Shown: positions 2,476 through 7,965, counted from the stretch's first letter. The stretch: DNA of 21,552 bases from a virus (IMGVR_UViG_2718218127_000003), one strand, 5' to 3'. Numbers and translations are program-made. Notes: a model not told the origin generated them from the letters alone.

Positions 2476-3057
2476 TTACCCTATAGGTGCTACTGGCCAT
2501 TCAATATCCGGAGCAGTTGTTGTATTAACACGGTTCAGCAACACCCGATACTTTTTCCAGGCTTCCAGCAACGAGTTTTCTTCCTCCGTTGCGATTTCCA
2601 GATCTACAGCATCCTGAAGTGGCGCAATATGCTCATTCGCTGCCTGCATCAGGCTGTTTTTTGTTTCTTCCGCCTCCCGGATCCGGAATAGTTTTTCTGC
2701 TTCTGCATCTTTCACCCAGGCTGTGCCGTTCCACTTCTGAAACTCCCCTTCCGGGGATAACCAAGTGGCATTTTCCGGTAACGGACCGAGTTCAGAAATA
2801 AATAACGCGTCGCCGGAAGCCACGTCATAAACCGTTTTACCCCGATGATCTTCAACGAGATGCCACGATGCCTCATCACTGTTGAAAACAGCCACGAAGC
2901 CTGCCGGAATATCTGGCGGTGCAATATCGGTACTGTTTGCTGGCAGACCTGTATGAGGCGGAATATATGCGTCACCTTCACCAATAAATTCATTAGTTCC
3001 GGCCAGCAGATTATAAATTTTTATGGTCCGTGGTTGTTCACTCATTCTGAATGCCAT
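2476..3057 (-). CDS. Phage tail fiber assembly protein (Tfa)
   Basis: The N-terminus [54 protein letters not shown] is characteristic of lambdoid Tfa chaperones. The ATG overlaps the stop of the upstream stf fragment (TAATG). Confidence 0.85.
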
Positions 3058-3297
3058 TATGCAAGCCTCACAATATAGTTAAATGCGATGTTTTTGACGG
3101 TGTTTTCCGCGTTACCAGCAGCGTTAACGGTGATGGTATGTCCATGTGAACCAATCGCAACGGAGTGCGTATGAGCACCAATACCGACAGTATGTGCGTG
3201 TGCACCTGCGCTTGCAGCAGTACCCGATACAGAGTGCGTATGAGCGCCTGCAGAAGAAGTGTTAACACTGTATTTAGAATAATCAGGTGATCCACTT
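3057..3297 (-). pseudogene. Side tail fiber (stf) gene, 3'-terminal remnant of about 80 codons
   Basis: My own translation of an alternative minus-strand frame gives ...[79 protein letters not shown], the (G)AHTHSV-repeat C-terminus of lambdoid side tail fibers. There is no start codon; it is fused upstream to the nu1 fragment. Confidence 0.7.
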
Positions 3298-3625
3298 CCA
3301 CCACTTCAGCGGAGTCTCTGGCATTCTTCAGTTCCTGTGCGTCGGCCTGCGCACGCGTAAGTCGATGGCGTTCGTACTCAATAGTCCCTGGCTGGAGATC
3401 TGCCTCGCTGGCCTGGCGCAGTTCTTCAACCTCCCGGCGCAGCTTTTCGTTCTCAATTTCAGCATCCCTTTCGGCATACCATTTTATAACGGCGGCAGAG
3501 TCATAAAGCACCTCATTACCCTTGCCACCGCCTCGCAGAACGGGCATTCCCTGTTCCTGCCAGTTCTGAATGGTACGGATACTCGCACCGAAAATGTCAG
3601 CCAGCTGCTTTTTGTTGACTTCCAT
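3296..3625 (-). pseudogene. nu1: Terminase small subunit Nu1, N-terminal 110 codons only
   Basis: [110 protein letters not shown] matches lambda Nu1 as I recall it. After codon 110 the frame runs into out-of-frame stf sequence (the listed 185-aa ORF is a chimera). Confidence 0.85.
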
Positions 3626-3850
3626 TGTTCATTCCACGGCCAAAAACAGAGAAAGGAAACGACAGAGGCCCAAAAGCTCGTTTTCAGCACCTGTCGTTTC
3701 CTTTCTTTTCAGGGGGTATTTTAAATAAAAACATTAAGTTACAACGAAGAAGAACGGAAATGCCTTAAACCGGAAAATTTTCATAAATAGCGAAAACCCG
3801 CGAGGTCGCCGCCCCGTAACAGCCCGGATCGCCGGAAAGGACCCGTAAAT
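3626..3850 (-). other. Lambda-type cos site (cosQ-cosN-cosB); 12-nt cohesive end at 3803-3814
   Basis: The reverse complement of 3721-3814 reads GGGCGGCGACCTCGCGGGTTTTCGCTATTTATGAAAATTTTCCGGTTTAAGGC..., which is the lambda left-end/cos sequence. The flanking CGGAAAGGACCCGT matches the lambda right end. It sits directly upstream of nu1. Confidence 0.85.
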
Positions 3851-3968
3851 GAGATGCTTTGTTGTTTTCTTGTTGGCTGTTCAACTACATGCAAGCATAT
3901 GGCATAATATTTAATTGATAATCTAATAGTTATAAAAACTTGCCCCAAAACCTTAACGGAGACTAAGA

Positions 3969-4661
3969 ATGTCCAGAGAAGGAACGTTAGATTTATTGCA
4001 AGAAGTTGAAGAAACCGTTGAAATATTAAAAGATACGCAACAAATAAAACCAGTAAAGGTTAAATCAATACTTGAAAATTTAAGAAGCGCATTAGAATAC
4101 GTTGCGAATGATAGTTATGAAAAACATACCACTAACCAATCAACCCCTCGGCCAAAAATTTATTTCCCATACGGCGAGAAAAAATTTTTAGATGCTTTCT
4201 TTATTAAAAAATTAAACTGCCAGCAACCTGAATTATCTCCATTATATGCAGTTTTTGTTTCAATCCAAGACTATCAAACTGGTAATAACTGGCTTGGAAT
4301 GATGTGTAACCTCACGAACGAAGTAAAACATAGGAAACCAATCCCATTGAGTGAAGATAGTATTGTTCGAGGAATAGATGTTAATATCAATGGGTTTGGA
4401 TTAATTAAGACAGATGCTACATCAAAAATCATTTTCAGAGATAATTTCACCAATGGACAGAGAATTGAAGACTTCACCATTGAAAATGGTAAAGTTGAAA
4501 AATCAGGGAACGGAATCCCCATCAATATTAACATAACCGAAGAGAAAAAAATAAGATTCCACGGTACAGATTATGAGGTCATTCCTTTTGTAGAGTTATG
4601 TCTAAAAGAAATAAGAGATTTTGTTAATGAAGCATATGAAATTTTAGATGCCATTGAATAA
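3969..4661 (+). CDS. Hypothetical protein, 230 aa, no recognisable domain; gene at the bor position between Rz and cos
   Basis: ATG at 3969 is preceded by GGAG with 7-nt spacing. The gene is AT-rich relative to its neighbours and lies on the strand opposite the late genes. The product is hydrophilic with no signal peptide. Confidence 0.7.
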   Translation: MSREGTLDLLQEVEETVEILKDTQQIKPVKVKSILENLRSALEYVANDSYEKHTTNQSTPRPKIYFPYGEKKFLDAFFIKKLNCQQPELSPLYAVFVSIQDYQTGNNWLGMMCNLTNEVKHRKPIPLSEDSIVRGIDVNINGFGLIKTDATSKIIFRDNFTNGQRIEDFTIENGKVEKSGNGIPININITEEKKIRFHGTDYEVIPFVELCLKEIRDFVNEAYEILDAIE

Positions 4662-4756
4662 TAATGATTAAGTAACATGGCAGGTAATCTATTTAAACCG
4701 GCCATGTTACAAATCATTGACGTAGAGAAAAAATGTAAAGTATATCCTTTATATAC

Positions 4757-5260
4757 TCAATTGTAATTTGATGTCCTCACCGACTCATAAACGCGCTCAC
4801 ACGTCATTCCAGCCCGGTAGCTTTCGTCAGATCGCTCAGCATAATATCGAGCTTCTTCTGTAAGGCGGCCGAGCATGTCGGCGAGCACTGCGGCGTCGGC
4901 TCCGGCTGTTTTGCTTCTGACGGCAGCGGCAAGATCTGCGGTGTGCTTTGCGGCGTCCAGGCGGGCGGCAAGCTTTGTTGCTTCGGTGCGCAGCTGGTTA
5001 ACAGTGGCAGACAGGCCAGCAGCAGTGGCAGCAGATTTAGCTGCTTGTGCTTGTGCATCTTTTACAGCCTCATCACGGGCAATTATGCGCCCTTGTTCAA
5101 TCATGCGGGCTGCGGTCTGCGCGTTCGCTGTTTGCGATGATTCCGCGCTGTCACGTTCCGCCCACTTTTTTTCCCAACCGCGGCTACACCATATATTTCC
5201 AGCGATAAACGCACTGGTCACTAGTACCGCGGCAACAATAAGCTGGGAGCACAGGCTCAC
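4757..5260 (-). CDS. Rz-like i-spanin (inner-membrane spanin)
   Basis: N-terminal TM helix [23 protein letters not shown] followed by an Ala/Gln-rich coiled coil. The GTG start overlaps the endolysin stop (GTGA). Confidence 0.7.
4804..5058 (-). CDS. Rz1-like o-spanin lipoprotein, embedded in the +1 frame of Rz
   Basis: [23 protein letters not shown] has a lipobox (LTSC) and is followed by a Pro-rich segment. The gene lies entirely inside Rz, as in lambda Rz/Rz1. Confidence 0.65.
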
Positions 5261-5790
5261 TGGTCTATCCCCCAGCAGGTTAATGCACTCTCCTGGTCAC
5301 GACGAATAACCTGACCGTAACAATTATTTGAACGAATACGGCAATCACGTCCACCGTCCTTTATCCACCAGCGAATCGCCTCGCATGCGCCTTTACGATC
5401 ACCGGCATTAAGCCGCTTATAAAACGTCGACGGAAAACACTTACCAGGGCCAATGTTATAGGGACAGAATGACGCGATACCGGCTTTCTGTGGCTCGGTC
5501 AGTGGAACTTTTATATTGCGCTCCACCCATGCCAGCGCCTTATCCCGCTCAATGGCGTTAACCTGGGCGCATTTTTCCTTCGACAGTTTCATTCCCGGAA
5601 TAACAGGTTTACCGTCCACCATCGTTGCTCCCCGACAGATGGTCCATACGCCGGAGCCATCGCGGTATGCAGTGGTGTGATTCCCCTCTTTTTCATCAAG
5701 AAACTGATCGAGAATGTCAGGTGCAGGAGCACTGGCGGCAATCAGTGCCAGAACAGCAGCCGACAGGCTGTATCTGATTTTTACGTTCAT
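5257..5790 (-). CDS. Phage endolysin (GH24 lysozyme) with an N-terminal signal-anchor (SAR-type), RrrQ-like
   Basis: [56 protein letters not shown]... matches lambdoid lysozymes of the Qin/21 type. Confidence 0.85.
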
Positions 5791-5924
5791 GGATATTTAT
5801 CAGGATTTATCGGTTTCTGAACCCTGGATATGTTAAGCATTCAGCCCGTCAGTGGTAGGACACTGGCGCTCTGGTTAAGGATTATGGGGGATGCAGGCTG
5901 GGCTACCCCATCTGAGGATTTGAT

Positions 5925-6164
5925 ATGCAAAAAGAAGTTTTTATCAATATTACAGCTGACTGCTCATCTCCTGCATCAACAGCAAAAGAAATTGAAGCTC
6001 TTAAATATATGATTACAGTAATATTTACCGTATTGGACCAGAATGAAAAAAATGGAATCATTCATCAATTAAATGAACATGTAAATAATCCATATATCAA
6101 AAGCAATCTGGAAATGTTGCTACCAATGAAAGATATTGGAAAACCAACTGAAACAAAAGGCTAA
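5925..6164 (+). CDS. Small hypothetical protein (79 aa) inserted in the lysis cassette on the opposite strand
   Basis: ATG at 5925 is preceded by GAGGA with 6-nt spacing. The gene is AT-rich and has no recognisable family. Confidence 0.45.
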   Translation: MQKEVFINITADCSSPASTAKEIEALKYMITVIFTVLDQNEKNGIIHQLNEHVNNPYIKSNLEMLLPMKDIGKPTETKG

Positions 6165-6475
6165 CAACCCGTAATCGAGTTATCTGAACTGTTAATTTTT
6201 ATGGTATACCGCGCCTCTGAACAGGGGCGCGTTTCTGGCAACAGCTCGTCCCCTTCACATAACCCGGCAGCAACATCCAGGAAGACCTGTCTGATGCTCC
6301 TTCTGGCTGCTGCCTCATAAAACTCCAGCGCGGCACCTTCAACACGGTCCAGCGAGATGTCCAGGTCAAAAATTTCACCGTCAAAGCGTTTTTTGTCCCG
6401 TAACGCTAAAGTTACCGTAACTTTATTCTCAAAATTGCGGATCCCTTTCACAATCAGTTCATAGTTTTGAGTCAT
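6161..6475 (-). CDS. YdfR-like protein (DUF1327 family) of the Qin-type lysis cassette
   Basis: MTQNYELIVKGIRNFENKVTVTLALRDKKRFDGEIFDLDISLDRVEGAALEFYEAAARRS... ATG at 6473-6475 with GGGGAGAG upstream. It sits between holin and endolysin, as ydfR does between essQ and rrrQ. Confidence 0.7.
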   Translation of the reverse strand: MTQNYELIVKGIRNFENKVTVTLALRDKKRFDGEIFDLDISLDRVEGAALEFYEAAARRSIRQVFLDVAAGLCEGDELLPETRPCSEARYTIKINSSDNSITGC

Positions 6476-6479
6476 TGAA

Positions 6480-6695
6480 TTACTCTCCCCGTGCAGCCTT
6501 GCGCTTATCTTCTTTAATCTTGAAATAAAGGTTTGTCAGGTACGTCAGCAGGCCAAATACCAAGCTACCCAGCACACCTATTGCTGCCCACTGTGAGGGC
6601 GTGACTTTATCGAGCAGCTGTAAAAACCAGTAGCCAGCACTGCCTGCGGAGGTGCCGTAGGCAATGCCCGTTGTTAACTTATCCATGGATTTCAT
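6480..6695 (-). CDS. Class II holin, phage 21 S (pinholin)-like, with a dual-start motif
   Basis: [71 protein letters not shown], 71 aa, with Met1 and Met4 (antiholin/holin starts). Strong SD GGAGGTG. Confidence 0.85.
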
Positions 6696-6888: not shown

Positions 6889-7614
6889 TCATGTCTTTTC
6901 TAAAAAAAATCTTGATGAATATTGATGGGGAGGAACACCAAAATATCTTCTGAAAACACTTACAAAATATGACGTGTTTTCATAACCGCATATCTCAGTA
7001 ACTTTTCCAACAGAATATAAATTGTAGCTTAATAACCTTTCCGCCATCACCATTCGCTCTTCAAGAATTAACTTACTAAATGATAAGCCTTCGTGCTTTA
7101 ATTTTCCTTTTAACAGACTTTCACTCAGATACAGTCTTGAAGATATATCACAAAGTCTCCATGCTGCAGATATATCCGTGTGAATAATAGCCTTAACTTT
7201 ACTTCCTAAACTATTAAGACATCCAAATAAAAAACTTTGCACTATTTTCTCTGAAGATAAGATAGCAAGACATGCAAGTGATATTTGATTTCTAACAAAA
7301 TCCACAGTTCTGCCATCACAATTCAAGCATGCAATCAAGTTCTTTAACAATGAAAAATCTTCACATTCCACCATCAAGTATGCCGGATAAAACCTTCTTA
7401 CAGAAAAAGGTGAGAGTGTGTTGCTTTTAAAGAAATCATTAACTGTTTTCTCTTCAACATCTACGATCATTGCATGATCTATATTTGATGAAAAAAAATC
7501 TTTTAAATTGTAATCAATGAGAACAGCACTTCCTTTTTTAAATAAAATATCTTCTTTACCAATTCGGACATCAAACGAGTTCAACACCAAAATGATAGAA
7601 CATATGTATGGCAT
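6889..7614 (-). CDS. AraC/XylS-family transcriptional regulator, AppY/EnvY-like (241 aa from the ATG); paralog of 228..971
   Basis: ...WRLCDISSRLYLSESLLKGKLKHEGLSFSKLILEERMVMAERLL...CGYENTSYFVSVFRRYFGVPPHQYS. ATG at 7612-7614 is preceded by AGGTGG. The gene and its 350-bp upstream region are AT-rich. Confidence 0.8.
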   Translation of the reverse strand: MPYICSIILVLNSFDVRIGKEDILFKKGSAVLIDYNLKDFFSSNIDHAMIVDVEEKTVNDFFKSNTLSPFSVRRFYPAYLMVECEDFSLLKNLIACLNCDGRTVDFVRNQISLACLAILSSEKIVQSFLFGCLNSLGSKVKAIIHTDISAAWRLCDISSRLYLSESLLKGKLKHEGLSFSKLILEERMVMAERLLSYNLYSVGKVTEICGYENTSYFVSVFRRYFGVPPHQYSSRFFLEKT

Positions 7615-7965
7615 ATTATCCACCTGATATCATTGGGGTTACACCAGGTAAGTATAGGTGGAAAATCAATATTCGCCAGTTCAACAATAAGGAAAATCTC
7701 ATTGCATCACAAGTATAAAATTATGTATTTAACTCACAAAGACAAATTATTAAACCAATCTGTTATATTATATATAGCTGCGTGGAATCATAATATTATA
7801 TATTTTGACTGGCATGTTTACCAACTTTAAGTTGCATCTCAATGGTTTCTTCAGCGTAAACAGAGTTTTTATACAAACTGACACTCTGGGTATCATAGTG
7901 TAGTTTTTACGATTGTAAATATCCTGCATGCAGGAACTCATCCTTTTGGATGATATCGCATACAA

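Follow-up and report, generated by a model that had tools for sequence, protein, structure and literature searches.

The viral sequence IMGVR_UViG_2718218127_000003, a stretch of 21,552 nucleotides (nt) referred to here as the window, carries between the lysis genes and the cohesive-end site of a prophage a coding sequence for a protein of 230 amino acids (aa), which begins with an ATG and occupies positions 3969..4661 (+), stop codon included. An initial annotation had proposed this gene as a candidate for an undescribed phage-exclusion or conversion function, and the translation quoted there is an exact match to the open reading frame (ORF). We consider the gene a good candidate for a new single-protein anti-phage defence.

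The features by which the gene had first attracted attention are all present. A ribosome-binding site (GGAG, 3958-3961, +) lies 7 nt before the ATG, and the G+C content of the gene (0.323) is well below that of the lysis cassette (0.488; 4757-6695) and of the Nu1-cos region (0.497; 3068-3850). The flanking phage genes are all on the minus strand, whereas the 230-aa gene is on the plus strand, antisense to the late operon, and it lies between Rz (4757-5260) and cosN (3803-3814), the position of bor in phage lambda. The lambda bor gene, situated between Rz and cos on the opposite strand, is expressed from the prophage and encodes a small outer-membrane lipoprotein.

Both limits of the slot are well defined. 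On the left, the cohesive-end sequence GGGCGGCGACCT at 3803..3814 (-) is a unique exact match, with none expected by chance, and aligns with the sticky end of phage phi80; some 40 nt beyond cosN align with the annotated phi80 cosQ, and similarity ends at about 3853. Because cosN and this cosQ alignment adjoin the gene, it can be placed in the lambda ‘bor’ slot. On the right, the slot ends at an Rz-type spanin gene (DUF2514; 4757..5260, -), the last gene of the lysis cassette, which is convergent with the 230-aa gene.

Between these limits, the G+C profile delineates an AT-rich block from about 3850 to about 4760, corresponding to a cargo cassette of about 0.9 kb (3853..4756, +) that starts where phi80 cosQ homology is lost and ends at the Rz stop codon. 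Between cosQ and the gene, inspection by eye suggests a candidate sigma-70 promoter at 3880..3908 (+), with a TTCAAC hexamer, a 17-nt spacer and an extended -10 element (TGgCATAAT); a consensus scanner missed it because the -35 element matches at only 3/6 positions. No good match to a LexA box was seen by eye upstream of the gene, and tRNA and Rfam scans found no such element within the cassette. Downstream, a strong hairpin with the core GTAACATGGC...GCCATGTTAC (4662..4719) begins at the stop codon, with a folding free energy of -23.8 kcal/mol and a z-score of -6.0 on the plus strand; it folds on the minus strand too and has no clear U-tract. Lying between the gene and the convergent Rz, it could be a terminator or a stabiliser of transcript ends. 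Hairpins also follow the stop codon in the Enterobacter (z -4.6) and Raoultella (z -2.75) homologues and are lacking in Cronobacter, that is, they recur in two of three other genera. This anatomy is that of a mobile, independently transcribed cargo (moron) gene.

The ORF is a genuine gene and not a chance reading frame, with a median ratio of nonsynonymous to synonymous substitution (dN/dS) of 0.09 (Nei-Gojobori, 35 homologue pairs), indicating purifying selection. An initial homologue search returned 66 relatives, each of 225-245 aa and all from Enterobacteriaceae. Profile searching extended the family to at least 672 clusters, counted as cluster representatives at 50% identity with E<=0.001 (259 of them at E<=1e-10), spanning Enterobacteriaceae, Pseudomonas, Burkholderiaceae, and prophages and phage contigs from gut metagenomes; relaxing the large homologue search to E<=10 returned the same 96 matches as before and added no marginal annotated relatives. 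The exact protein is encoded on 71 contigs, and near-identical copies occur in Citrobacter freundii and Escherichia fergusonii. Among complete E. coli genomes the gene is rare (5 of 5,426, one copy being cut by the insertion sequence IS1), a patchy distribution of the kind expected for cargo.

Public records of the family, including that of this gene (WP_073528137.1), are all labelled ‘hypothetical protein’, and the sole match in profile libraries is PHROG 13652 (phrog_13652; E 1e-106), a group of unknown function. Pfam gave no match for the protein or for 41 diverse family members, and NCBIfam gave none for the protein. Among the 5,027 defence-protein models of PADLOC-DB 2.0.0 the only match was a partial one to BrxC (12 bits, E 0.007, 45 residues), which we regard as noise, and no PADLOC model was matched by more than one of the 41 members. 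A tblastn search of 50,697 phage records, phi80 included, found no match; hmmsearch of the PDB with two family profiles gave noise only; a search for related loci among GTDB species representatives yielded no confirmed locus; and literature searches with the family's accession numbers and PHROG identifier found no papers. A few members carry additional sequence: one of 370 aa (P0177) has a C-terminal DUF6941 domain (Pfam, E 2e-5), and two of 312 aa (P0156 and P0160) have N-terminal extensions of about 85 residues. Such fusions might hint at partners or regulators.

As had been claimed, the protein lacks a signal peptide and transmembrane segment: Kyte-Doolittle means over 19 residues reach no more than 0.64, and residues 1-25 (mean -0.67) form a hydrophilic N-terminus. 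The protein is acidic and predicted to be cytoplasmic. Structure prediction, one of the checks originally proposed, gave an AlphaFold2 model (36-sequence alignment, pLDDT 90.5) with a HEPN-like helical core and an inserted beta domain, and a Pseudomonas homologue that is only 27% identical is predicted to have the same architecture, beta insertion included (pLDDT 95.2). In the model, residues 1-121 (3969..4331, +) comprise helix 1 (3-23), helix 2 (28-53), an insert of loop and short helices (54-107) and helix 3 (108-121); residues ~122-200 (4332..4568, +) form an all-beta domain between helix 3 and helix 4, with strands spread over 127-197; and residues ~201-230 (4569..4658, +) contain a C-terminal helix (204-227), equivalent to HEPN helix 4, that closes a four-helix up-down bundle of two alpha-hairpins. 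The Foldseek search that had been recommended alongside was less productive, with nothing significant in the PDB, where only weak matches to NusG domain II and DUF1312 appeared, probably owing to the beta domain, and one unnamed match in BFVD. The 230-aa protein shares position and orientation with lambda Bor, but size and predicted fold are unrelated: no Bor-type signal peptide or lipobox is present, and the model is a soluble helical bundle with a beta domain.

Conservation, computed over 136 and 212 divergent sequences, is concentrated in the helical core. Helix 2 carries conserved K32, E36, R39, S40, Y44 and D48; the insert carries Y65-F66-P67-Y68 and Q100; and helix 3 carries W108, N117 (93%), K120 (99%) and an invariant H121, its end reading T116-N117-x2-K120-H121. 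Variation within the family is greatest in the beta domain, with a mean top-residue frequency of 0.26 vs 0.58-0.63 for helices 2 and 3.

The definition of HEPN domains calls for an Rx4-6H motif where helix 3 ends, N, D or H standing directly after the arginine, for inserts between helices 2 and 3, and for a polar or acidic residue in helix 2 (PMC3710099). In the 230-aa protein the sequence T116-N117-E-V-K120-H121 closes helix 3 and aligns position by position with R-N-x3-H, there is an insert between helices 2 and 3, and helix 2 is polar, although its spacing is E36-x2-R39 rather than exactly Ex3[KR]. The canonical arginine is missing, and K120 or R39 may substitute for it. HEPN families without the motif arginine exist, and Csx1 has a beta-hairpin after its motif (PMC3710099). 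Going by the published descriptions, the closest parallels are Parep1/8, of the HEPN-T clade, which like the 230-aa protein keeps the histidine and has lost the arginine, other conserved basic residues having been proposed to compensate, and Csx1, in which a beta insertion likewise directly follows the motif helix, a hairpin there where a whole domain is predicted here (PMC3710099). Judged by the modelled fold and motif geometry, the family probably belongs to the HEPN superfamily as a divergent member. The initial view of an unknown gene whose product bears no motif is thus upheld in that Pfam, NCBIfam and PADLOC hold no described function or family for it, but not in the second respect, as a HEPN-like four-helix bundle with an invariant N-x2-K-H can be recognised.

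In most of the contexts examined the homologue stands alone as cargo in a prophage or island: such is the case for about 24 of 30 viral contigs and for every genomic look-up except one. Its usual place is the junction of lysis and packaging genes, and in Enterobacteriaceae it is antisense. In HK97-like prophages of Enterobacter, Raoultella and Cronobacter it is a lone opposite-strand gene with the lysis cassette on one side and packaging genes (HNH/Terminase_4) on the other, and in about 24 of the 30 IMG/VR contigs it is flanked by a lysis gene and by a packaging gene or glycosyltransferase moron, all antisense to it. The neighbours on the packaging side vary (lambda TerL/Nu1, HNH plus Terminase_4, or a glycosyltransferase moron); the position itself recurs beside packaging modules that are unrelated to one another. 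In other E. coli prophages the slot between Rz and cos holds YlcI/YnfO, gnsB or nothing. More distant members turn up in a prophage contig from a pig-gut metagenome, where they are flanked by tail fibre and holin; in a Pseudomonas veronii prophage, antisense within its early-left region; at a prophage end beside lysis genes in Caballeronia; directly upstream of TerS; and in a Cupriavidus island of the integrase/resolvase kind.

No partner gene is conserved across the contexts compared. Candidates that were considered and rejected include a 485-aa divergent neighbour in Enterobacter (a glycosyltransferase moron, phrog_1579, absent elsewhere), the gene downstream of the Cupriavidus member (not a paralogue) and two small antisense ORFs at 4571-4717 and 3781-3948 (not conserved). 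In Enterobacter prophages (locus L003, 5381-7912 and 8690-10001) the homologue shares the junction of lysis and packaging genes with two glycosyltransferase-type morons (phrog_1579 and phrog_854), and is followed there by a 1.3-kb stretch without a convincing ORF, which could contain gene remnants or RNA.

The nearest functional precedent for a gene in this slot is phi80 taiEcA (orf63), an experimentally proven defence gene that is constitutive in the lysogen and lowered by Q expression (PMC11364771). In the phi80 genome (JX871397) orf63 occupies 4366-4980 on the minus strand, antisense between the lysis genes and cos, and TaiEcA therefore shares with the 230-aa gene both its slot and its orientation, interrupting the Q-dependent late operon. 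Both genes are AT-rich cargo without a Pfam or PADLOC match, encoding 204 aa in phi80 vs 230 aa here. This precedent validates the positional logic of the initial annotation, which had likened the locus to slots for conversion and exclusion genes. The view that an independently organised accessory (moron) gene occupies a variable slot is also supported; a bor-like form of conversion is unlikely for a cytoplasmic protein.

Tai is reported to act by a non-abortive block of virion assembly, with the central tail fibre as target (PMC11364771), and the 230-aa protein could work in the same manner, as a non-catalytic binder that uses its helical surface for binding or oligomerisation and halts assembly, with the cell left alive, by attaching to one of the infecting phage's structural proteins. 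The shared slot and antisense orientation speak for such a binder, as does the fact that TaiEcA carries an R-N-x3-H motif and is nonetheless reported to act by assembly inhibition. Against this, homology to TaiEcA or to a five-member Tai alignment is undetectable, and phi80 has the counter-defence gene atiEcA beside tai, for which the 230-aa gene has no counterpart: neither the window nor any of four related loci has an AtiEcA homologue, and no small late-strand ORF is conserved beside the gene. The absence of Ati is not decisive, as Ati is found in only five Tai carriers. A histidine that is invariant, with adjacent lysine and asparagine, across more than 200 very divergent sequences would also more commonly mark a catalytic site than a surface for binding. 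We regard the binder as unlikely, though far from negligible.

The motif of TaiEcA deserves separate mention. The protein contains LRIHLLCE... and INSMRNDLAH, a canonical HEPN-type R-N-x3-H in which R94, N95 and H99 do not vary among five homologues with identities as low as 25%; the paper describing Tai makes no mention of HEPN (PMC11364771). HepS, the prophage protein discussed next, is also triggered via the C-terminal part of the tail-tip protein J, and its homologues occur in the same genera as those of Tai. Tai and HepS may form one family or two related ones, and Tai may have an unrecognised nuclease activity.

A second precedent is provided by prophage HEPN proteins that act alone. HepS of Gifsy-1 (PDB 9OIJ/9OIK) is a solo HEPN abortive-infection protein that is constitutive and latent, is triggered by the tail tip protein J and targets tRNA anticodon loops (PMC13043305). 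Tha is a tail-activated HEPN system of Staphylococcus aureus prophages, in which Tha-1 (301 aa) has a C-terminal HEPN domain with R265-x4-H270 and needs the inhibitor Ith (PMC11087260). In both, a single prophage HEPN protein senses a phage structural protein and aborts the infection (PMC13043305; PMC11087260). Compared by description, HepS and the 230-aa protein are both single proteins of fewer than 250 aa whose genes occupy accessory slots in lambdoid prophages and have no constant partner; in HepS one polypeptide both senses and acts, through the fold proposed here. The two differ in that HepS has a canonical R100-x4-H105, whereas the T-N-x2-K-H of the 230-aa protein falls outside the canonical RX4-6H pattern, and in the beta domain of about 75 residues that is predicted here after the motif helix; no sequence link between them was found. 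Tha differs in host phylum, in locus and in its canonical motif. GiPD474, another Gifsy-1 defence (PMC12724215), was also considered and set aside as an unrelated ATPase. By analogy, we file the gene as one that may work like the solo HEPN prophage defences, and not as a member of Tai or HepS.

The reading we favour, at a little short of an even chance, is that the gene encodes a constitutively expressed sensor-effector anti-phage defence of this ‘solo HEPN’ type, most likely a metal-independent ribonuclease (RNase). Under this reading the cassette is a self-contained unit: a putative promoter of its own, a lone ORF and a terminal hairpin, set against the direction of the late operon in the gap between Rz and cos. 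It would be transcribed constitutively from the resident prophage by a promoter within 3853-3968. Its product would be a latent, cytoplasmic, single-protein defence in which the helical core is the effector, with an active site built from H121 together with K120, N117 and helix-2 residues R39, S40 and Y44, while the variable beta domain that follows the putative catalytic helix would sense a cue of infection, such as one of the infecting phage's structural proteins. Activation would lead to RNA cleavage, shutdown of translation and an aborted infection. Late transcription from pR', which depends on Q, runs against the gene and could therefore dampen it when the carrier prophage itself turns lytic. 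A more specific proposal, which we hold only tentatively and think more probably wrong than right, is that the family constitutes an unrecognised HEPN branch, in which the arginine has been swapped for a T-N-x2-K-H site and a beta-sandwich sensor placed in the loop between helices 3 and 4, giving a sensor and RNase in one protein, triggered directly by a phage protein and carried in prophage cargo slots of many phyla.

Several observations weigh against the solo-HEPN reading. The canonical HEPN arginine is absent, position 116 being threonine here and V, N, S or A in other members; Pfam, NCBIfam, PADLOC and hmmsearch of the PDB give no sequence-profile link to any HEPN family; and comparison with Tai gives no homology either (BLASTP E 6.6; hhalign probability 0.1% against TaiEcA, which has the canonical R-N-x3-H that the 230-aa protein lacks, and 0.2% against an alignment of five Tai sequences). 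The beta domain has a dN/dS of 0.08 among close relatives, indicating purifying selection and hence no signature of an arms race at that scale, and diversifying selection on this domain was accordingly rejected among close relatives. As to context, one distant member sits in an ordinary chromosomal site after tex, and some members are co-oriented with late genes (in the pig-gut contig and upstream of TerS), which also fits a function in the lytic cycle.

A role of that kind, in which the protein serves the carrier phage during lytic growth through counter-defence or host takeover and not the lysogen through protection, is one we rate as quite unlikely. Anti-defence genes can lie close to the modules for lysis and packaging, in the two distant contexts just mentioned the gene shares its strand with late or packaging genes, and HEPN-fold domains occur also as non-catalytic nucleotide-binding modules (PMC3710099). 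The members from Enterobacteriaceae and Pseudomonas are, on the other hand, consistently antisense to the phage operons, with their own ribosome-binding site and upstream region; the gene has been kept intact in a heavily decayed prophage that is unable to make virions; and members also occur in a non-phage island and a chromosomal site.

An addiction module, in which a latent toxin stabilises the prophage or island, its neutraliser being an unrecognised small RNA or peptide, and has no primary anti-phage role, seems improbable: the contexts share neither flanking sequence nor any neighbouring ORF, Rfam has no match in the cassette, and HEPN defences that act alone, with no antitoxin, are on record (HepS; PMC13043305), while in practice the notion overlaps with abortive infection. 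Most improbable is a bor-like lysogenic-conversion factor altering host physiology or virulence, which is suggested by the position and orientation of lambda bor and by the glycosyltransferase morons that the same slot also holds in Enterobacter prophages, and is made unlikely by the cytoplasmic nature of the acidic protein, without signal peptide, lipobox or transmembrane segment, as well as by a host breadth, from Enterobacteriaceae through Pseudomonas and Burkholderiaceae to gut-metagenome prophages, that argues against a virulence role specific to one host niche.

The prophage around the gene is a remnant. The lysis side is represented by Rz1 (4804-5058, -), embedded in Rz, a lysozyme gene (5257-5790, -) and a holin gene (6480-6695, -). 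On the packaging side lies a remnant of the terminase small-subunit gene Nu1 (3068-3625, -), of which about 110 residues are lambda-like and the remainder is unrelated sequence annotated as a tail-fibre remnant. Nu1 is cut short and joined to remnants of tail-fibre sequence, so that the entire morphogenesis region is missing and the prophage is heavily decayed; the head and tail region appears to have been removed by a single large deletion. Adjoining this remnant is an intact tail-fibre-assembly gene (2476-3057, -), within which falls the sole Rfam match in the window, to IS009 (RF02111; 212 bits; 2516-2714, -).

Over the stretch queried, the window is identical to E. coli S43 and NCTC11023. 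In E. coli ETEC1738 a cassette that is 98.8% identical lies between Rz and an intact terminase small-subunit gene in an apparently complete lambda-like prophage. E. coli MB06022 has the same decayed prophage as the window, but with the gene cut to 170 aa by an IS1 insertion and with IS3 just downstream (2770-3914 of locus L078). In phi80, mutants lacking ati evaded autoimmunity via transposon insertion into tai (PMC11364771); the IS1 insertion in MB06022 may simply reflect a preference of insertion sequences for AT-rich DNA.

Other AT-rich genes are present in the window. A second antisense ORF (5925-6164, +; 79 aa), situated inside the lysis cassette between the lysozyme and YdfR-family genes and recorded as hypothetical (WP_032264896.1; phrog_21218, of unknown function), may be another small moron. 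Two genes for AraC-family regulators (about 31-36% G+C), one just past the tail-fibre-assembly remnant (228-980, -) and one in the late region between the holin and YbgA-family genes (6889-7623, -), look like further cargo; from their position we take them to be appY/envY-like.

New prophage defences are found regularly, and the 230-aa gene would as such be no surprise. If it is a defence gene, a widespread and unannotated family would join the single-protein, prophage-borne immune effectors, and the junction of lysis and packaging genes between Rz and cos would be a general slot for defence cargo in lambdoid phages and not a peculiarity of phi80 and Tai, providing a positional rule by which such genes could be mined. 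A HEPN site without arginine, combined with an inserted sensor domain, would broaden the definition of HEPN nucleases, and the protein would offer a compact model for the coupling of recognition to activation within one polypeptide. Such genes would also affect the host range of therapeutic and biocontrol phages in E. coli, Enterobacter, Klebsiella and Cronobacter.
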